Origin: Shigella phage Sfin-3
Length of the DNA stretch: 50,309 nt
Direction: 5' to 3' (one strand)
Sequence record: MN296515
In this document: positions 26,888-48,935 of the stretch, one piece after another
Layout of the letters: every line of letters starts with the position of its first letter
Position numbering within the stretch: position 1 is the first letter of the stretch
Translations under genes and position numbers: made by a program
Notes under the pieces: generated by a model
What the model was told of the DNA's origin: nothing
The model's input: only the letters and a program-made list of their open reading frames with translations
The model's database searches: none

Positions 26888-26916
26888 TTGTATGTCCTCG
26901 TCGTTAGTGTGATTGC

Positions 26917-26945
26917 ATTGTATGTCGCATTTACTTTTATTGCAA
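26917..26945 (-). promoter_or_regulatory. sigma70-like promoter for cor (TTGCAA-17-TACAAT)
   Basis: Minus-strand -35 at 26940-26945 and -10 at 26917-26922; 30 nt upstream of cor ATG. Confidence 0.5.
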
Positions 26946-27353
26946 TAGAGCGATTACAATTTTTCGTGTAACAAGTGTCTATTTTTGTAACCGGAGCGGG
27001 TGTTACAAAATCCACCCCATACGACCGCAGAAGGATATGATAAAAACTCTATATAATATATATAGATAGATAATATTTAATTTTAGCTTTATATATATAA
27101 TTATTGTTGTGTAACAGTTGTCTATCGTGTAACTGGTGATTTGATTGATTCGTCAAATTTCTATCATATATGTTCAAAATTTAATCAATATGGATTCTAC
27201 TTGTAGCTATCTCTGTATTTCTAAGAAAAAGCGGTTACAAGTATTACACAGTAGACATCACATAAAAATAGACTTAAGTCATTGATTCCGTTAATGCTGG
27301 TTGTAACTTGAGCGATATAGACACGCTATTACACACCAATTACATGTATCCGA

Positions 27354-27381
27354 TTGACTAAACGCTGTTAATGGCTATAAT
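27354..27381 (+). promoter_or_regulatory. sigma70-like promoter for exonuclease/Erf/SSB operon (TTGACT-16-TATAAT)
   Basis: -35 27354-27359, -10 27376-27381; 32 nt upstream of ATG 27413. Confidence 0.55.
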
Positions 27382-27412
27382 GGATTCATCGTAAACGAGG
27401 GAGATAAACGAA

Positions 27413-28551: not shown

Positions 28552-29199
28552 ATGCAATTATCACCGGAAACAAACGAAATCCTCCCAGCACTGTTTAATG
28601 CTCGCAATAAATTCGCGAAGGCAAAGAAGGACGCTAAAAACAATCACCTGAAGAACTCATACGCAACTCTTGATGCGATGATGGCGGCAGTTAGCCCAGC
28701 GTTAACCGATAACGATATCATGATCCTGCAATCAATGCTGGATACCAGTACAGAAACGACTTTCCATCTTGAAACTATGCTGATTCACAAATCAGGGCAG
28801 TGGGCCAAATTCTTCATGATGATGCCGATTGCAAAACGCGATCCTCAAGGTGTAGGTTCCGCAATGACTTATGCTCGACGCTACTCTCTCGCTGCGGCGC
28901 TTGGTATTAGTCAGAGTGACGACGATGCGCAGCTTGCAGTGAAATCCGTCAAGGACTGGAAAAAAGAACTTGATGCGTGCGAAGATATCGAATCACTGAA
29001 GGATGTATGGGCCAGCGCCTACCGTCAGACTGACACGGCAAGCAAGTCAATCATTCAGGATCACTACAACGCACTTAAGGCTAAGTTTGAGATCGGTAAA
29101 GCTCGTGGTATTCGCCCGGCGCAACCGGAACAGAAAAAACAGGTTGAAGCAACTAGCGCGAAGCCTGTACAATCTCAATCAATCACCAACTTTGAATAA
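28552..29199 (+). CDS. single-strand annealing protein (Erf/Rad52-like)
   Basis: ATG 28552 with ACCAATCAGGAG RBS; position between exonuclease and SSB; call is by context. Confidence 0.5.
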   Translation: MQLSPETNEILPALFNARNKFAKAKKDAKNNHLKNSYATLDAMMAAVSPALTDNDIMILQSMLDTSTETTFHLETMLIHKSGQWAKFFMMMPIAKRDPQGVGSAMTYARRYSLAAALGISQSDDDAQLAVKSVKDWKKELDACEDIESLKDVWASAYRQTDTASKSIIQDHYNALKAKFEIGKARGIRPAQPEQKKQVEATSAKPVQSQSITNFE

Positions 29200-29694: not shown

Positions 29695-31472
29695 GACTTC
29701 AACATTTTTATCTCTTCTTGTAACTCTTCAACTTTCTTTATTGTATCCTGTAAAGCTCTCATAGTGTCAAGCAATAAAGGAGTTGTATCAAGCTCAAGCC
29801 TTTCAACTTTTGGCCCGTTTAGCTCGTGGCTCTCATACATCCTTCTCTTAACATATAGATTGTCGATCTCTTCTATCTCCTGAGCTATAACACCTCGCCT
29901 TACCCTTTCTTGCTCATCATCGTTAAAGATAAAGTTCCTAAATCTCATTGATTTTATGTTGTTGTATGCAATGCTTGATTCATCATCCTTTATGCTGTGC
30001 TTTATATTTCTGTCAGATGCCGGAATCTGTTGGAAACTTCCAGCCCCTTGCTGTCCAACGTAAGATATTTGCCCTGAAGCCATAAACCTGAAATGCATTT
30101 GCAAACCAATATTGCCTTCCCCATCCCTATCTTGAGCGCCTACTGATATTTGTGCCCTGGGCCATTCAGGATTGCCCGTAGTCATCATGCCAAAAGCTAC
30201 GCCGCCAACATACCCTTGACCCCTTGTATCACACGATCCAGAAATAAGTGATTGATAGTTTTCAGCGCCACTATCGGCGGTGTAAGCATTACCCTGGAAG
30301 CATGAAGCAGACCACATCTGGTTATAACCCATAGTTGTTTTCTGGCATAAAAACTGATTGGCTCTGAATCTATTATTAGTCTCGAAGTAGTTTGGTCCCT
30401 CATAAAATAATAAAGTCCCAGCATAACCATTATCGCTATGTTCTTTTCTGACGTAAATCCCTGGCGAGGATATTCCATCAGGTGACATAATCATCAATGA
30501 TGACAACATGGACTGACTACCCCAGTTAGAACCGTTCCATGAGTTCCTTCCTGCACCTATAGCCCCCGTGGTGTTAATAGTAAGAAAGTTAGCAGCATCA
30601 TTTTCACCTAACCCAATATTTTTTCTTGACTCTTTTTTATCCTCAAGACCAGCCAAGTTTCCATCCTTAGTTAAAAGATTTTCAGCATTGATGCTGTTAG
30701 CTGCGTCTTTAGCTTCTTGAGCACTTACCGCAGCAGCATCTTTTGAGCTTACCGCTTCGTCACGTGCTGCCTGAGCGTCGTTTTTTGCAGAGGTAGCCGT
30801 TTGTGCTGCCGTTTGAGCGTCATTAACGTAACCTGACAGATCGCCTTTCGCGTCATTAATTGCCTGAATCGCCGCCGCTTCTTCTGAGTCAATGTGAGTG
30901 ATGGATGAATTTTCTTTTTGCTGCACATCGGTTATAGCCTGATCCTTAGCCGCATTGATGCTACCGACAGCACCGTCAACAATCTGTTGCGTCTGATTCT
31001 TGATTGAGTTAGTTTCATCGCGTGCAGCGTTGGCTGCGTCACGCGCTAATTCAGCCTGATTTTGCGCAGCTTGAGAATCAGATTTCGCCTGATTCACATC
31101 AGCAACTATTTGCTCAAGTTTATTCATATCAAGCTGATTTATCAGATCTATAGCTGCCGCGATCTCAGTCTCTTTGCTTTGATAGTATCGAAGCGTCTCA
31201 GCAACGTTTTGAGCTAATCCGTTAACAGTCAACGAATCGTTAAGCAGGATCACATACTTACCGTCAGCGGCAGTCTGACCATCCGTAGAGATAGCCTTTA
31301 ATTCTGTATCACTAACGATATCGCTAATCACAGCCAGCTTAATTGGTTGCTCAAGGAACACGATAGTTGCACCTACGCGAATAAGAGCAAGCTGATCTTT
31401 CCATTTTGTATCGGTTCCGTGAACCGTTCCGTCTGCATCCATTGATGCAGTACCGCGTCTGTATAAAGCCAT
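29688..31472 (-). CDS. tail fibre protein with C-terminal intramolecular chaperone (peptidase S74-like) domain
   Basis: 594 aa; central Ala/Gln/Asp-rich coiled coil; C-terminal SDRNIK...RRGVIAQEIEEI...LDT pattern of auto-cleaving chaperone domains. Confidence 0.75.
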   Translation of the reverse strand: MALYRRGTASMDADGTVHGTDTKWKDQLALIRVGATIVFLEQPIKLAVISDIVSDTELKAISTDGQTAADGKYVILLNDSLTVNGLAQNVAETLRYYQSKETEIAAAIDLINQLDMNKLEQIVADVNQAKSDSQAAQNQAELARDAANAARDETNSIKNQTQQIVDGAVGSINAAKDQAITDVQQKENSSITHIDSEEAAAIQAINDAKGDLSGYVNDAQTAAQTATSAKNDAQAARDEAVSSKDAAAVSAQEAKDAANSINAENLLTKDGNLAGLEDKKESRKNIGLGENDAANFLTINTTGAIGAGRNSWNGSNWGSQSMLSSLMIMSPDGISSPGIYVRKEHSDNGYAGTLLFYEGPNYFETNNRFRANQFLCQKTTMGYNQMWSASCFQGNAYTADSGAENYQSLISGSCDTRGQGYVGGVAFGMMTTGNPEWPRAQISVGAQDRDGEGNIGLQMHFRFMASGQISYVGQQGAGSFQQIPASDRNIKHSIKDDESSIAYNNIKSMRFRNFIFNDDEQERVRRGVIAQEIEEIDNLYVKRRMYESHELNGPKVERLELDTTPLLLDTMRALQDTIKKVEELQEEIKMLKSK

Positions 31473-40444: not shown

Positions 40445-40852
40445 TCAAATTCTTCCTTTGTAAGCTGGAGTCTTGCGCACAATTCGACGTTCCGATCTAT
40501 CAATGTTTCTACGTTCGCCAAACAAATCCTCATCACTCATCTCTCCAATATGCATCATTTCCCATGTATACCGATTGTTGTAACCATCAATACACATCAG
40601 CTTCATCATTACCGGGCGCTTAATCTTTCCCTTGCACCAGTAAACACCATCCTTGCGATCCAAGTAACCCTCAGTTACGCAACGAGAGCAAAACTCCTTA
40701 GATAGCGCACTTGTAAATTCACGGTGAGTCATTCCAGCAGCCTTAGCAAATCGCTCACTTTCCTTGTGGGCGTATATAAATTTCGCTATGTGCTGTCGGG
40801 TGTATTTGTCGTAACCTTCGCAGAACCTGAACAGATCTAAAAGAAGCAGCAT
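40445..40852 (-). CDS. hypothetical protein (135 aa, Cys-rich), operon partner of P-loop ATPase
   Basis: Track ORF; start 4 nt after stop of upstream ATPase gene. Confidence 0.55.
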   Translation of the reverse strand: MLLLLDLFRFCEGYDKYTRQHIAKFIYAHKESERFAKAAGMTHREFTSALSKEFCSRCVTEGYLDRKDGVYWCKGKIKRPVMMKLMCIDGYNNRYTWEMMHIGEMSDEDLFGERRNIDRSERRIVRKTPAYKGRI

Positions 40853-42501: not shown

Positions 42502-42918
42502 TTATAAGTATTTGGCCTCAAAGGTTGTGCCGTCTGCGATACTAAAACCAACCTCTTCGCGAAACAAGGTCCATCGACAACCATCTTCATCAAAGATGTA
42601 ACCAGCTACGCCACCGAGAGCGCGACCGCTTTCAACCTGGTAACGCTTGCCAACTTTGAATGATTTTTTCATTGGGTTGCGATGGTCAAGCCCGGTGCAC
42701 TTGAGCGTCTTTGTTTTCAACTCAGTGAACTTCGCGAAGAAGATTTCATCAGATCCGTGAATCTGTAATTCATCATGCTTTTCAAGTTTTAAATACTTGC
42801 CGCATTTTAACTTGATTTCACGAGTGCCATCATAGCGCTCACGACCCTTGTATAGGTTGTTTACTTCAAATCCTGTGATTTTATCTGTGTAAGTGCATTT
42901 CAGTTTGATGGATTTCAT
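42502..42918 (-). CDS. hypothetical protein (138 aa)
   Basis: Track ORF; AACCAATCAGGAG RBS; module 42955-42997 upstream. Confidence 0.55.
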   Translation of the reverse strand: MKSIKLKCTYTDKITGFEVNNLYKGRERYDGTREIKLKCGKYLKLEKHDELQIHGSDEIFFAKFTELKTKTLKCTGLDHRNPMKKSFKVGKRYQVESGRALGGVAGYIFDEDGCRWTLFREEVGFSIADGTTFEAKYL

Positions 42919-44555: not shown

Positions 44556-44559
44556 GTAA

Positions 44560-44790
44560 TCACCCTCTAAAACTATCAATTGTATCGTTGATGTATTTCA
44601 CTTGCGCCTCTACGTCAGACGTGGCTATATACTGGAATGTATCGTAATCTTCCCAAAGGTCGACAAGCTCAACCTTTGTATGATGCTCTTTTAATCCACC
44701 CATGTGACCGTAATGTGTGCGGTAGACGATGAATCCCTCATCATTGGCGCGCTGGATTGCTTTCTTCAATCCGGGGTGTTTAATTGCCAT
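44560..44790 (-). CDS. hypothetical protein (76 aa)
   Basis: ATG 44790 with AACCAATCAGGAG RBS; track GTG start 44823 overlaps the -10 at 44822-44827. Confidence 0.55.
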   Translation of the reverse strand: MAIKHPGLKKAIQRANDEGFIVYRTHYGHMGGLKEHHTKVELVDLWEDYDTFQYIATSDVEAQVKYINDTIDSFRG

Positions 44791-44821
44791 CTTATCAATC
44801 TCCTGATTGGTTGGTGTGTTC

Positions 44822-44864
44822 ACTATACCCCGATTCCCTTCGAGGCGTTTAGCAAAAAGTGCTA
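44822..44864 (-). promoter_or_regulatory. composite promoter module, minus strand (TAGCA-ctttt-TGCTA, 22 nt, -10 TATAGT)
   Basis: Palindrome 44850-44864; -10 44822-44827; ATG 44790. Confidence 0.55.
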
Positions 44865-44865
44865 T

Positions 44866-45051
44866 TTAGAATTTTACATCTTCAACAAGCTCAACCATTT
44901 TGTAACCCAAGCGATAAGAGTCGCCGAACAACAACAGACCCATAAATTCATCGTTGGTTATTGACTCCTTGCCAACAGTTTTAAGCTCTCCGTTGTGAAT
45001 CACGGTATCGCCTATCTTGATCTCTGATTTATGAACTAATTTTGTTTTCAT
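44866..45051 (-). CDS. hypothetical protein (61 aa)
   Basis: Track ORF. Confidence 0.5.
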   Translation of the reverse strand: MKTKLVHKSEIKIGDTVIHNGELKTVGKESITNDEFMGLLLFGDSYRLGYKMVELVEDVKF

Positions 45052-45066
45052 TTTCTGACCCGTTAA

Positions 45067-45252
45067 TTAGAAGAAAGATACGTAGTTTGCAATACCTTTA
45101 GCGTCGTCGTTAGGCATTGCTTTGATAGCCAGGTCATAACCAGCCTCGACCTTCTGCTTTGCTGACTCTTCGTTGTATCCCCAAATAACCAGGATCTTAA
45201 CTACGTTTTCTTTGCTCAGGACTTTAAGGTCTTTAGTGATGCGAAGTGCCAT
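45067..45252 (-). CDS. hypothetical protein (61 aa)
   Basis: Track ORF; GAGGAAAAAC RBS; module 45287-45329 upstream. Confidence 0.5.
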   Translation of the reverse strand: MALRITKDLKVLSKENVVKILVIWGYNEESAKQKVEAGYDLAIKAMPNDDAKGIANYVSFF

Positions 45253-45286
45253 TTTTGTTTTTCCTCAATCTCGTTTCGATGAGGTA

Positions 45287-45329
45287 ATTATGCCAAATCA
45301 CACCGATCGAGTTTTAACAAAAAGTGCTA
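45287..45329 (-). promoter_or_regulatory. composite promoter module, minus strand (TAGCA-ctttt-TGTTA, 22 nt, -10 CATAAT)
   Basis: Palindrome 45315-45329; -10 45287-45292; ATG 45252. Confidence 0.5.
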
Positions 45330-46018
45330 TCCGCGATAGCTTTAAAAAATCCCCTGGGCGACAGGGATCGTATCAACTTAGTTTTGGCAGATTTGCCGCC
45401 CAGCTTGTTTTGCTGTGCAGAGTACCCGTCAGGCAGGTTTACAGGTTTTCTCTCGGGCATGACAAAATCGCCAGAGGTCCAAAGACAAGTTTTCTTCGGA
45501 TAAGCATCGCGCGGCGCAATATACATCGGGAACCAGGGATGTGAGTCATTCTCAGGAAGATAGCCGCCATACTCCCAGGGATTGAAGGAGTGATTTGGTT
45601 TTCTCCACGCAGACGACAGGACGCTCACCGGATTCTCAATGATGTAAGTCACGCCCAGGCTATCTCCAATGTTCGCAGCAATCCGGGCGGTGGCGACAGC
45701 TTTCTCCTGGAACAACGGATCACGTTCACGCTTGCTGGCAAAGTGGCGAGCACCACTAACAGCCAGGTCAGTGCACGGCGGGAAGGCTATAATGAAATCC
45801 GGCTTGCCATACACGCCAGCTATAGCATCACGCTCAAACGCTGCGTCAATGAACACGTTCACATACTCAATGTTCGGATGCTCCACTCGGGCATTGTACT
45901 TTGCATAATCCCCGTGATCGGCTCCGTCAAAGTTGAAGCACATCACCTTGTGACCTTGCTTAGCCAGTTCATGACCTGCAAGGCCGGAACCGTCGAATAG
46001 CGACCAAATCAACTTCAT
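45314..46018 (-). CDS. small DNA (cytosine-5)-methyltransferase-like protein
   Basis: 234 aa; motif I SLFDGSG, motif IV FPPC (catalytic Cys), motif VI ENP in canonical order; shorter than typical C5-MTases. Confidence 0.55.
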   Translation of the reverse strand: MKLIWSLFDGSGLAGHELAKQGHKVMCFNFDGADHGDYAKYNARVEHPNIEYVNVFIDAAFERDAIAGVYGKPDFIIAFPPCTDLAVSGARHFASKRERDPLFQEKAVATARIAANIGDSLGVTYIIENPVSVLSSAWRKPNHSFNPWEYGGYLPENDSHPWFPMYIAPRDAYPKKTCLWTSGDFVMPERKPVNLPDGYSAQQNKLGGKSAKTKLIRSLSPRGFFKAIADSTFC

Positions 46019-46158
46019 TTTGCGATCTCCTTTTTGTAGTGATTCAGCTTGTCGATGATTGACTTCGACTTGTTGGCTAGCGCCATGTCAGAGAACAGAG
46101 CCACGCGATAGATGTGTTCGTAACGATTAATGGCCGCGTTGATGTTTGCAATATTCAT
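46015..46158 (-). CDS. hypothetical small protein (47 aa)
   Basis: ATG 46158 with CAACCAATCAGAGGA RBS; track GTG start 46197 would overlap the -10; stop overlaps next ATG. Confidence 0.45.
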   Translation of the reverse strand: MNIANINAAINRYEHIYRVALFSDMALANKSKSIIDKLNHYKKEIAK

Positions 46159-46188
46159 GTCGATTCCTCTGATTGGTTGATGTGATGA

Positions 46189-46233
46189 ATCATACACTGC
46201 CAGCCTGACCAGGTCGTTAGCAAAAAATGCTAT
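46189..46233 (-). promoter_or_regulatory. composite promoter module, minus strand (perfect TAGCA-ttttt-TGCTA, 24 nt, -10 TATGAT)
   Basis: Palindrome 46219-46233; -10 46189-46194; ATG 46158. Confidence 0.5.
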
Positions 46234-46433
46234 TCCAATAGTTGCTCATTATTCCACCAGTAATGGAATATCTGGAATAATTGCGATCCCGATTGATCTC
46301 GAATGATGAAATGTGATTGTTGCATGATGTGCAACTGTTGATGTGATTGTTGCTTGGAATGCAATGATTGTGAGAGGGAGGATTTAGTGTTACCCGGTTC
46401 GCCTGGTAGTCATCTCCATTTTTAGCAAAACGT

Positions 46434-46448
46434 GCTATCGATTACACT
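46434..46448 (-). promoter_or_regulatory. palindrome copy (TAGCA-cgttt-TGCTA) without evident -10
   Basis: Minus-strand orientation in intergenic region B; no TATAAT-like hexamer at 22-24 nt. Confidence 0.35.
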
Positions 46449-46754
46449 TTAACTTGTCACGACTGTAATATTTGTCTAGAATCGCACTTGTGACAAAATT
46501 ACGCACTGTGACGCATAACAATAGACATGTAGATATATGTATATATATAATATATATAGTGTTTTTTTATTTATATATATAGATAATCATATTGTAATGG
46601 TTGTGTATAGCCGTCTTACATTGTCTAGCGTACTGTTGGCATATTTCTATCTGCATGTTTATATATACAGTACTTTTTTGAGAGCCATATATTTCTATAT
46701 GGACCCTAGACAGCTAGACAAATGTTACACAGCTTAAAATTGGCTCGCAGGCAT

Positions 46755-46783
46755 TGACAGCCCTACATTGCGCCGTCACAATG
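46755..46783 (+). promoter_or_regulatory. weak sigma70-like promoter candidate (TTGACA-17-CACAAT)
   Basis: -35 46755-46760 perfect, -10 46778-46783 poor; in AT-rich region B upstream of gene 46842. Confidence 0.3.
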
Positions 46784-46841
46784 GCAATTGTTGACATGTT
46801 ATGACAACATTTACACATCAATAGACAAATAAGGATGAATT

Positions 46842-47357
46842 ATGAGCAATACCAATCAGGAATTAAAAATCACCGATATGATTCGACTAACCTGCGATGC
46901 AATGTACCGCGACAAAGGCATGACCGAGTTCTCTTTCGTGGCTGATGATATGGCCATCGAGGCCGCGCGATTCTACTTCCGTGGCCAGGAGGTAAGCGAT
47001 GCCGATCTTGAATCTGCCGCTGCCGGATGGGTGGACCAGAACCAGGGGGAGGTAGAGAAGAGATTCAAGTCCGCTTTCATTACTCCGATCATTACCCGGC
47101 ACTTTTGCAAGTACGGCAAGGTGGCAAAGGTGAAGGTAGGCCGGAATGACGCGGCAATCACAATGATAACCGTTATCGTTACAGACGAAGAGGTTCCAGT
47201 GAAGAAACGCCGTAGCCGGAAAAAAGTTAGCCTGGCCGACTGCCTGGATTCGTTTGATGTTGATGTTAGCAAGCTATCCGATAGCGAGTTAATGGTTCGT
47301 GATGTGAATGAGATCGTGCGCCAGATGAAAGCGCATATTGAAAAGTGTGGACTGTAA
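46842..47357 (+). CDS. hypothetical protein (171 aa)
   Basis: Track ORF; first gene after AT-rich region B; AAGGATGAA RBS. Confidence 0.6.
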   Translation: MSNTNQELKITDMIRLTCDAMYRDKGMTEFSFVADDMAIEAARFYFRGQEVSDADLESAAAGWVDQNQGEVEKRFKSAFITPIITRHFCKYGKVAKVKVGRNDAAITMITVIVTDEEVPVKKRRSRKKVSLADCLDSFDVDVSKLSDSELMVRDVNEIVRQMKAHIEKCGL

Positions 47358-48658: not shown

Positions 48659-48765
48659 ACTTCAATACAATAGCTCTATGGTCTGCCGTCTGGTTCTTCT
48701 GCATGGGTCACGTTATGGTCGGCATCGTGGTAATGCTTCCCCTGTGTGCGGGGGCGTTCGAATGA
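48655..48765 (+). CDS. hypothetical small membrane peptide (36 aa)
   Basis: ATG overlaps upstream TGA; hydrophobic ALWSAVWFFCMGHVMVGIVVMLPL; below ORF-track cutoff. Confidence 0.35.
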   Translation: MNFNTIALWSAVWFFCMGHVMVGIVVMLPLCAGAFE

Positions 48766-48935
48766 TGCGAATATTGATTTGCATGATGGCGGCTGTCGCC
48801 CTGGCTATCCTGGTAGTGTCCGGCTGCGGCGAGGTCAAAGAGCGATGCCATGAAACCGGGAGCCAGGCTACTACTTTCGTGATGGTTGGCAATGTTTTGC
48901 TACCAATCACATCAAATGAGATCACTTGCGAATAG
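48762..48935 (+). CDS. putative small lipoprotein (57 aa)
   Basis: ATG 48762 overlaps upstream stop (ATGATG); signal peptide with lipobox VVSGC; track ORF 48678 has a longer unsupported N-terminus. Confidence 0.45.
   Translation: MMRILICMMAAVALAILVVSGCGEVKERCHETGSQATTFVMVGNVLLPITSNEITCE

Follow-up and report, generated by a model that had tools for sequence, protein, structure and literature searches.

The 50,309-bp genome of Shigella phage Sfin-3 (sequence record MN296515; this whole stretch is called the window below) carries two AT-rich intergenic regions, A (26888-27412) and B (46198-46841), that appear to be the best candidates so far for the replication origins of the T1 phage family (Drexlerviridae). 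Region A and positions 46440-46841 of region B may be two copies of a single origin-type cis module conserved across the family, a reading to which we attribute somewhat less than an even chance. Each copy is found just upstream of a σ70-type promoter and has the same orientation as that promoter. An origin-type function is favoured because an unwinding element, specific repeats at its flanks and a second copy with the same repeats are found together. The original prediction, made from the letters of the window, had taken the whole interval 46198-46841 for a copy of region A; this applies to 46440-46841, while the left ~240 bp consist of promoter and packaging-terminus sequence.

T1, one of the seven classical T phages, is notorious as a contaminant of laboratories and fermentations. 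The window is co-linear with its genome (AY216660) at 83-93% in a whole-window blastn comparison, interrupted by a few indels, a more divergent stretch (~71%) and a block that does not align, and both regions match 64 T1-like phage records at 80-99% identity (megablast). The window is therefore a complete T1-like genome (Tunavirus), its first letter being ~3.5 kb rightward of where the T1 record begins. Region A occupies the gap between cor (minus strand) and the exonuclease VIII/Erf/SSB operon (plus strand) and corresponds to T1 positions 29851-30377. Region B (644 bp) lies upstream of the plus-strand gene that starts at 46842; its T1 counterpart spans the record junction (48675-48836 joined to 1-538). 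The two regions are ~19 kb apart and both are several kb from the helicase gene. Their features are listed in Table 1.

Paralogy, unstable cores and shared repeats of regions A and B

Duplex stability was calculated from nearest-neighbour energies in 80-nt windows. The two least stable positions of the genome are 46516-46595 in region B (z 5.7) and 27034-27113 in region A (z 5.6), the next one having a z of 3.4, and all six (TA)≥4 runs of the 50-kb window are inside A or B. The (TA)n core that had been proposed for region B is thus present. As expected of unwinding elements, no other segments of the window, of T1 or of TLS are as unstable as A and B (z ~5-6; next 3.4-3.6). Local alignment of A 27050-27125 with B 46534-46608 gave a score of 50. 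Dinucleotide shuffles scored 23.3 ± 2.8 (z 9.4). When shuffling preserved the local composition, scores were 26.9 ± 5.3, the highest being 50 (z 4.3); the similarity is inflated by low complexity but not explained by it. The claim that A and B are related beyond their AT-richness is also borne out by the recurrence of the pair, in the same orientation and with lineage-specific repeats, in the ten Drexlerviridae genomes compared (see below). The two regions have in common an exact 16-mer, TATATAATATATATAG (27050 in A, 46544 in B), found nowhere else in the window. The 18-mer TATATATAATATATATAG, originally given as the shared string, occurs in B only.

The repeats of the two regions are partly the same. 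TGTCTA is enriched in both, as the original prediction of common iterons implied: the window has 18 copies on both strands, four in A and six in B (1.17 kb together) and eight in the other 49 kb. The prediction does not extend to TGTAAC, which is abundant in A and rare in B, or to TGTCTAG, which is specific to B (four of the five copies in the window). Under a first-order model of each region, GTTACA is found seven times in A when 0.5 are expected, TAGACA six times in B against 0.41, and CTAGACA four times in B against 0.06. The strongest shared element is a 15-nt composite, TGTAAYA-NN-TGTCTA (TGTAAYANNTGTCTA). A search tolerating at most one mismatch retrieved four matches, all exact, two in A (26967(+), 27110(+)) and two in B (46464(+), 46715(-)), and none elsewhere; 0.07 were expected, and none of 100 shuffles reached at least four. 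The composites of region A (26966-26982 and 27109-27125) lie either side of its TA core. Those of region B are inverted, forming a 16-nt inverted repeat (46464-46479/46714-46729; 94% complementary) around 234 bp of AT-rich DNA; the right-hand one reads GTGTAACA-tt-TGTCTAG on the minus strand at 46714-46730, within the right arm. Specific short repeats thus adjoin or flank the AT-rich element in both regions, as in iteron-type origins, and a scan of the whole window found no further clustered rare heptamer in AT-rich DNA outside A and B. The four motif pairs first noted in region B are all present, although their coordinates were off by 1-3 nt. The exclusive composite and the recurring pairing fit one common binding protein and the option of one origin plus one origin-like site, both of which had been envisaged.

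Within Tunavirus hardly any variation is seen in the middle 160 bp of A or in the TA cores of B, in contrast to their flanks. In the TTGTAAC-N10-GTTACAA element of A the arms are invariant and the spacer is variable among 14 phages. The near-palindrome CATGTTTATATATACAGTAC of TA core 2 in B is unchanged in 10 of the 11 Tunavirus region-B sequences aligned. It resembles a LexA box with one mismatch in CTGT, and a perfect CTGT-N8-ACAG (TCTGTGTATATATACAGTG) is found at the equivalent place in region B of a further lineage (lineage X, see below); this likeness could be due to chance in palindromic TA-rich DNA.

Conservation of the pair in Drexlerviridae

A-B alignments were made for ten genomes: the window, three other Tunavirus, TLS, four TLS-like phages and a lineage represented by IMG/VR contig 2974594196, named here lineage X. 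The two regions are co-linear in all ten, in plus orientation, which is that of the downstream operon. Two dispersed copies with shared repeats and design were found throughout, with z values of 4.3 for the window, 6.2-7.5 for the three other Tunavirus, 7.5-15.6 for TLS and the four TLS-like phages and 16.8 for lineage X. In TLS, which belongs to a different subfamily, the equivalent of A is at 28707-29165 and that of B at the record junction, and both are stability minima. They align over ~140 columns (score 63, z 7.5) and have in common the repeats GTGAACA, TGGAACA and AGAACAA; those of the right arm are next to the second TA run and ~100 bp away from the −35 hexamer. In lineage X, whose helicase is 80% identical to that of the window, the alignment covers ~310 columns (score 96, z 16.8) and includes non-repetitive strings such as GCGCTAACT and TACATCTTATACA; the heptamers TGTAATC and TGTCTAA are present in both copies. 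This alignment stops ~100 bp upstream of the exonuclease VIII promoter, and the duplicated unit there therefore excludes that promoter. In TLS and in lineage X region A is closer to its own region B than to the region A of another lineage. Paralogs more alike than orthologs are, as judged from these alignments, a mark of concerted evolution. More generally, 45 loci upstream of exonuclease VIII across the family are all AT-rich (33-38% GC) with TA runs of 5-10 nt, and nearly all of them have heptamers repeated at least three times.

Two types of region B were distinguished in Tunavirus. Type I (the window, Shfl1, JMPW1, IME18, pSf-2 and others) has CTAGACA 3-4 times, while type II (T1, JMPW2, ISF002, ADB-2) has GATTAAC 5-6 times at the corresponding positions. 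In the right arm of type II, three tandem CGATTAACA units stand where the window has CTAGACAgCTAGACA. TA core 1 is nearly invariant across both types. The heptamer swap is partly inside 46678-47054, the block without nucleotide alignment to T1, which takes in the promoter and codons 1-70 of the gene that follows. A phage of the SsoS_008 lineage has elements of both types, and one phage carries both versions of the site beside the ribosome-binding site (RBS). The type II phages ISF002 and ADB-2 keep an A-type composite, TGTAACAGTTGTCTA, at the left site of B, so that a site common to A and B is present in most phages of both types; the left site of T1 differs. At T1 positions 29940-29946, 30083-30089 and 150-156 the sequence is TGTATAT or CGTATAT where 13 other Tunavirus sequences have TGTCTAT or TGTCTAG, a parallel C-to-A change that affects both left-arm sites of A and the left site of B.

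Candidate DNA-binding and replication proteins

Two phage proteins are candidates for factors acting at the repeats. One is a 543-amino-acid DUF3987 protein (Pfam E 9e-42; PHROG "DNA helicase"). DUF3987 proteins are classed with the superfamily 6, MCM-related helicases; they have a C-terminal winged helix and are predicted to be phage replicative helicases (PMC4889955), and one member was shown to be an oligomeric 5′-3′ helicase that works with a primase (PMC11724360). The other is the 135-amino-acid product of the gene directly after it, with a predicted winged helix in residues 1-75. Their identities to the window proteins (helicase/135-amino-acid protein) are 99/94% within Tunavirus, 80/70% in lineage X and 59/50% in TLS. 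Both diverge roughly in step with the repeats, which phylogeny alone predicts and which proves nothing. The phage also encodes a primase, an SSB, a Holliday-junction resolvase, a C2-like regulator and a 138-amino-acid protein (42502-42918). When the helicase and the two small proteins flanking it were compared by sequence with solved structures there was no match, nor was there one in NCBIfam, and Pfam had none for the two small proteins. A fold search with the 135-amino-acid protein revealed no specific link to a P4-alpha-type or other origin-binding domain.

The product of 46842-47357 was considered as a type-specific binder, its N-terminal part differing by type, and was rejected for want of a recognisable DNA-binding domain; its association with the type is not decisive because physical linkage alone would explain it. 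Its T1 homolog has weak, sub-threshold matches to DUF7174 and AcrF2.

Replication origin, promoter control or neither

If A and B are origin modules, a phage winged-helix protein (the C-terminal domain of the DUF3987 protein, residues ~459-543, the 135-amino-acid protein, or both) would bind the repeats. The (TA)n core would then melt, aided by negative supercoiling from the flanking promoters, and the phage helicase and primase would load at the melted core together with host DNA polymerase III. By analogy with Bacillus phage SPP1, one copy would fire theta replication and the other would serve as a second origin or as a protein-bound fork barrier. A fork stalled at this barrier might be processed by exonuclease VIII, Erf, SSB and the Holliday-junction resolvase, leading to a switch to concatemers for headful packaging. 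The most far-reaching version of this proposal is that the pair is the T1-family origin system, under concerted evolution in every Drexlerviridae genome, in which one copy is the theta start and the copy ahead of the exonuclease/Erf/SSB operon is a fork trap that triggers concatemers. It would be an SPP1-like arrangement with unrelated proteins, namely a superfamily 6 DUF3987 helicase and stand-alone winged-helix proteins. We put it forward as conceivable by analogy and, as a whole, rather improbable.

The two regions might instead be immediate-early operon control regions devoid of origin function. The sites would then be operators for phage regulators, and the AT tract upstream or bent DNA or a set of extra promoters; we see this as a possible but doubtful alternative. 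The observations in its favour, and others that weigh against an origin, are the following. By sequence match, σ70 promoters are found at 27354 (TTGACT-16-TATAAT), at 46754 (TTGACA-17-CACAAT) and at two more places in B. Among the 13 σ70-like matches of at least 10/12 in the genome (both strands), these four are the ones in A or B, all facing downstream plus-strand operons, and they include the only two 11/12 matches of the genome. The location of these two best matches makes coordinated transcriptional control of both operons, as suggested by the original prediction, plausible. One composite fills the spacer of the 46454-46482 match, TGTCTA sites bracket the 46754-46782 match, and both modules are oriented like the operon that each precedes. 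The B heptamers are exchanged as a block (CTAGACA/GATTAAC) while the helicase stays 99% and the two small neighbour proteins 94-98% identical, so that neither the helicase nor the 135-amino-acid candidate co-varies with the swap, and region A is unchanged across types (four TGTCTA, six or seven TGTAAC; T1 itself excepted). Because helicase, small proteins and region A do not change with it, the swapped sites rather resemble operators of a regulator whose gene is in the swapped block; the neighbouring promoter and the 5′ part of the gene behind it are exchanged along with the heptamers, which is the behaviour of regulator/operator modules. A block swap without change in A implies that not every B repeat is read by the reader of A, and some of them seem to be read by something that can be exchanged without touching A. 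TGTAAC is unevenly shared (28 copies in the window, seven in A and one in B). GC skew was rejected as an origin indicator since it tracks the orientation of the genes and their transcription, and provides no signal of its own. Finally, the model of the 135-amino-acid protein has good confidence over residues 1-75 only, and its Foldseek matches are generic, all with E > 0.1.

Promoter control leaves other features aside. The deepest conservation is that of the paired (TA)n runs, 150-300 bp upstream of the operon promoters, none of which promoter control needs. The A-B alignment of lineage X and the repeats of TLS both end or lie ~100 bp short of the respective promoter elements, region A lacks, at the corresponding place, an equivalent of the promoter-like match within the core of B, and no regulator was identified. 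As viral origins often coincide with regulated promoters, the origin and promoter-control readings are compatible and not exclusive. The scarcity of σ70-like matches agrees with the report of very few canonical promoters by the TLS authors. Equivalents of two of the promoters are annotated in other phages, that of 27354-27381 in T1 (AY216660) and that of 46754-46782 at the homologous place in SA12KD.

A structural or recombination role is very unlikely. The modules might in that case form cruciforms or break easily and so start recombination-dependent replication, or else assist packaging as accessory sites beside pac. Region B does adjoin the packaging terminus (T1 position 1 corresponds to 46319), its two TA runs are 93% complementary over 15 nt, and region A is directly upstream of the recombination operon. 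However, folding of the TA cores as single-stranded DNA gave hairpins no more stable than those of shuffled sequence (z −1.2 for B, +0.6 for A), on which ground a cruciform or hairpin function was rejected. Record starts and the T1 terminal repeat indicate a single terminus in B and none in A, and the ordered arrays of specific heptamers are left unexplained. We give still less credit to the idea that the modules have no specific function, being AT-rich spacers whose likeness is maintained by gene conversion, the phage being highly recombinogenic, and whose motif matches are by-products. Gene conversion alone would make paralogs closer than orthologs, and low-complexity (TA)n inflates the scores, as seen in the drop of z from 9.4 to 4.3 with the local-composition null. 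It would not account for an architecture, position and orientation kept across subfamilies with diverged repeats, for cores far more conserved than flanks, for a composite exclusive to A and B when 0.07 are expected, or for invariant half-sites around a variable intervening spacer. The origin-type module stays our preferred, tentative reading.

Other assignments of the sites were tried and set aside. TGTCTA sites could be read as −35 hexamers (their reverse complement TAGACA resembling TTGACA); this works at 46522-46551 and weakly at two A sites, but most sites have no properly spaced −10. Inspection by eye for IHF, DnaA, CRP, OmpR, TyrR and PhoB consensus sites gave no convincing match. Rfam had no match at the gathering threshold anywhere in the window, and thus no known structured RNA.

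Packaging terminus and other sequences in and beside the regions

The left part of region B has its own organisation. A predicted leftward promoter (46189-46233) precedes the minus-strand gene whose ATG is at 46158 and is separate from the A-like module. Its layout of box, 18/19-bp spacer and hexamer is found at most other copies of the box in the window, T1 and TLS. Between this promoter and the terminus repeats, 46231-46282 holds the conserved inverted repeats TATTCCAATA/TAATGGAATA and TTATTCCA/TGGAATAA, which look like an operator. The annotated 2800-bp terminal repeat of T1 (repeat region 1-2800 in record MK213796) begins at T1 position 1, which corresponds to 46319, and several T1-like records begin at 46319-46388 while none starts in region A. 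In T1-like phages pac was placed in this untranslated region (PMC7718038). The position of T1 nucleotide 1 in the left part of B therefore qualifies that part, and not the paralogous module, as the putative packaging (pac) terminus by homology, which we place at 46311-46364; the terminus at 46319 is 120-200 bp away from the module and region A has none. The 24-nt repeats (ATGTGATTGTTGC...) are a candidate recognition sequence for packaging initiation, and GTTGATGTGAT recurs at 46176. A second promoter-type box (46419-46438) has no −10-like hexamer at 18-19 bp.

To the left, region B adjoins a 1.6-kb segment without T1 counterpart (44556-46175) that includes a DNA methyltransferase gene (45314-46018, PHROG 757); T1 has an HNH endonuclease instead, elsewhere in the same arm. 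Region A contains a 46-codon open reading frame with a TTG start (27145-27285, plus strand), a putative gene that corresponds to CPTT1_049 of the T1 re-annotation and overlaps the highly conserved stretch 27140-27198.

A marbox-like promoter repeat

The 21-nt direct repeat aaATAGCACnnnTTGnTAAAA of TLS and T1, whose function was reported as unknown (PMC11447400), perfectly matches the MarA/SoxS/Rob marbox, for which the E. coli consensus is gcannwwntgnnaaa and a class II position is also defined (PMC12052159). The window has 21 exact matches (Table 1) when 0.95 are expected. Most copies in the window, T1 and TLS have the marbox-like box exactly 18 bp before a −10-like hexamer. With this spacing the box has its centre near −40 and points forward, as in the class II position. 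In these promoters the −10 is often enclosed by an inverted repeat. One perfect match (46421-46435) is inside region B, and the related box at 46214-46233 departs from the consensus. The activity of marbox-like promoters may require host Rob, MarA or SoxS, or else a phage mimic. A literature search found no paper mentioning both "marbox" and "Drexlerviridae".

Table 1. Features of regions A and B and of related elements in the window (positions in the 50,309-nt stretch)
Feature	Position	Strand	Remarks
Region A: left arm, composite GTGTAACA-AG-TGTCTAT, then TTGTAAC-N10-GTTACAA	26966-27008	+	composite at 26966-26982
Region A: TA core	27034-27125	+	ends in composite GTGTAACA-GT-TGTCTAT (27109-27125); paralog of 46516-46608
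Region A: right arm, TGTCTA-CTG-TGTAATA-CT-TGTAAC and TGTGTAATA-GCG-TGTCTAT	27234-27335	-	inverted relative to left-arm sites
Region A: promoter-like TTGACT-16-TATAAT	27354-27381	+	11/12; ahead of exonuclease VIII/Erf/SSB operon
Region B: leftward promoter (predicted)	46189-46233	-	20-nt box ATAGCATTTTTTGCTAACGA (46214-46233), 19-bp spacer, −10-like TATGAT (46189-46194)
Region B: inverted repeat TATTCCA...TGGAATA	46231-46282		between leftward promoter and terminus repeats
Region B: two 24-nt direct repeats ATGTGATTGTTGC...	46311-46364	+	30 nt apart, around 46319
Region B: second 20-nt promoter-type box ATAGCACGTTTTGCTAAAAA	46419-46438	-	conserved in all Tunavirus sequences aligned
Region B: left composite TGTAATA-TT-TGTCTAG	46464-46479	+	within spacer of promoter-like TTGTCA-17-TAGAAT (46454-46482)
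Region B: TA core 1	46516-46608	+	two (TA)n runs ~22 nt apart, then TGTAATGGTTGTGTATAG; aligns with A 27050-27125; includes promoter-like TAGACA-18-TATAAT (46522-46551, 11/12)
Region B: TTACA-T-TGTCTAG = TTACAtTGTCTAG	46616-46628	+	TGTTAATCG in its place in type II phages (T1 group)
Region B: TA core 2	46654-46702	+	near-palindrome CATGTTTATATATACAGTAC (46654-46673); ATATTTCTAT(C/A)TG twice; fourth-lowest 40-nt stability window
Region B: right arm, TGTGTAACA-TT-TGTCTAG-C-TGTCTAG = TGTGTAACAttTGTCTAGcTGTCTAG	46706-46731	-	composite plus tandem TGTCTAG
Region B: promoter-like TTGACA-17-CACAAT	46754-46782	+	faces plus-strand operon starting at 46842
Region B: TGTCTAT-TGA-TGTGTAAA = TGTCTATtgaTGTGTAAA	46810-46827	-	just upstream of RBS of the 46842 gene
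135-amino-acid protein	40445-40852	-	directly after helicase; predicted winged helix, residues 1-75; candidate factor, putative link to A/B
DUF3987 protein, 543 amino acids	40857-42488	-	candidate factor, putative link to A/B
Marbox matches	310, 1857, 2377, 3672, 5503, 12207(-), 15972(-), 31496, 33037, 35547, 36570, 38558, 40319(-), 42481(-), 44848(-), 45313(-), 46421(-), 47375, 48115, 49136, 49914	+ unless marked

Significance and comparison with known systems

A literature search found no transcription start or origin mapping in the T1 family, nor an earlier description of the A/B pair, although it may be mentioned in the original T1 genome paper. An analysis of T1-like phages found no origin of replication (PMC7718038), and the 2024 TLS paper reported no iterons anywhere in the TLS genome (PMC11447400). 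The pair provides two precise targets of ~300 bp each, with a 15-nt site, for the study of where and how T1-like phages start DNA synthesis. It also bears on the switch to headful-packaging concatemers and on the control of two σ70-driven operons. If the SPP1-like proposal were true, a convergent replication strategy with different proteins would be at hand; if the sites are operators, they would identify the early-gene switch of the family. With either reading they are candidate targets for the design of phage-resistant production strains, for instance with decoy sites or CRISPR targets.

The early promoter clusters of T7 (A1-A3) and T5 consist of tandem strong host-type promoters in AT-rich DNA near a genome end, facing small early genes. 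The promoter-like matches of region B are likewise in tandem in AT-rich DNA near the genome end; to our knowledge, the T7 and T5 clusters are not duplicated elsewhere with specific repeat arrays and paired (TA)n runs. The origins of phage-inducible chromosomal islands (PICIs), including those of Staphylococcus aureus pathogenicity islands (SaPIs), resemble region B, whose AT core is flanked by inverted composite sites. In PICIs the origin is single and beside the pri-rep gene, whereas the two copies of T1-like phages are separated by 19 kb and are both several kb distant from the helicase gene.

In the satellite phage P4, two regions several kb apart, ori and crr (cis replication region), have the same short repeat, read by the winged-helix C-terminal domain of the alpha helicase. 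The repeat, TGTTCACC, resembles those of TLS (the reverse complement of GTGAACA is TGTTCAC) and, more loosely, TGTTACAC of the window. Alpha is a fused primase and superfamily 3 helicase, unlike T1-like phages in which primase and helicase are separate proteins and the helicase family differs; P4 is not known to have a (TA)n core pair. Replication of P4 depends on alpha and its cognate site (PMC6092414).

SPP1, with its origins oriL and oriR, is like the T1 family a virulent pac-type siphovirus of similar genome size. One of its origins is in a long intergenic region among the late genes and both are bound by one phage protein, gp38 (PMC6316719, PMC3485210). Fork stalling at the second origin was proposed to trigger concatemer formation through a 5′-3′ exonuclease, an annealing recombinase, an SSB and a Holliday-junction resolvase (PMC6316719, PMC3485210). 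The two systems are not homologous in sequence or in proteins. Replication of SPP1 involves gp38, a loader and a DnaB-type helicase; in T1-like phages the helicase is a DUF3987 (superfamily 6) protein and no initiator has been recognised. While oriL is part of gene 38, the T1-family copies both occupy intergenic DNA ahead of promoters. For SPP1 there is proof of binding and of origin activity, the T1-family modules being known here from their sequence. T1-like phages nevertheless encode all four kinds of protein of the SPP1 switch, three of them directly downstream of region A, and SPP1 is the closest described case to the A/B pair.

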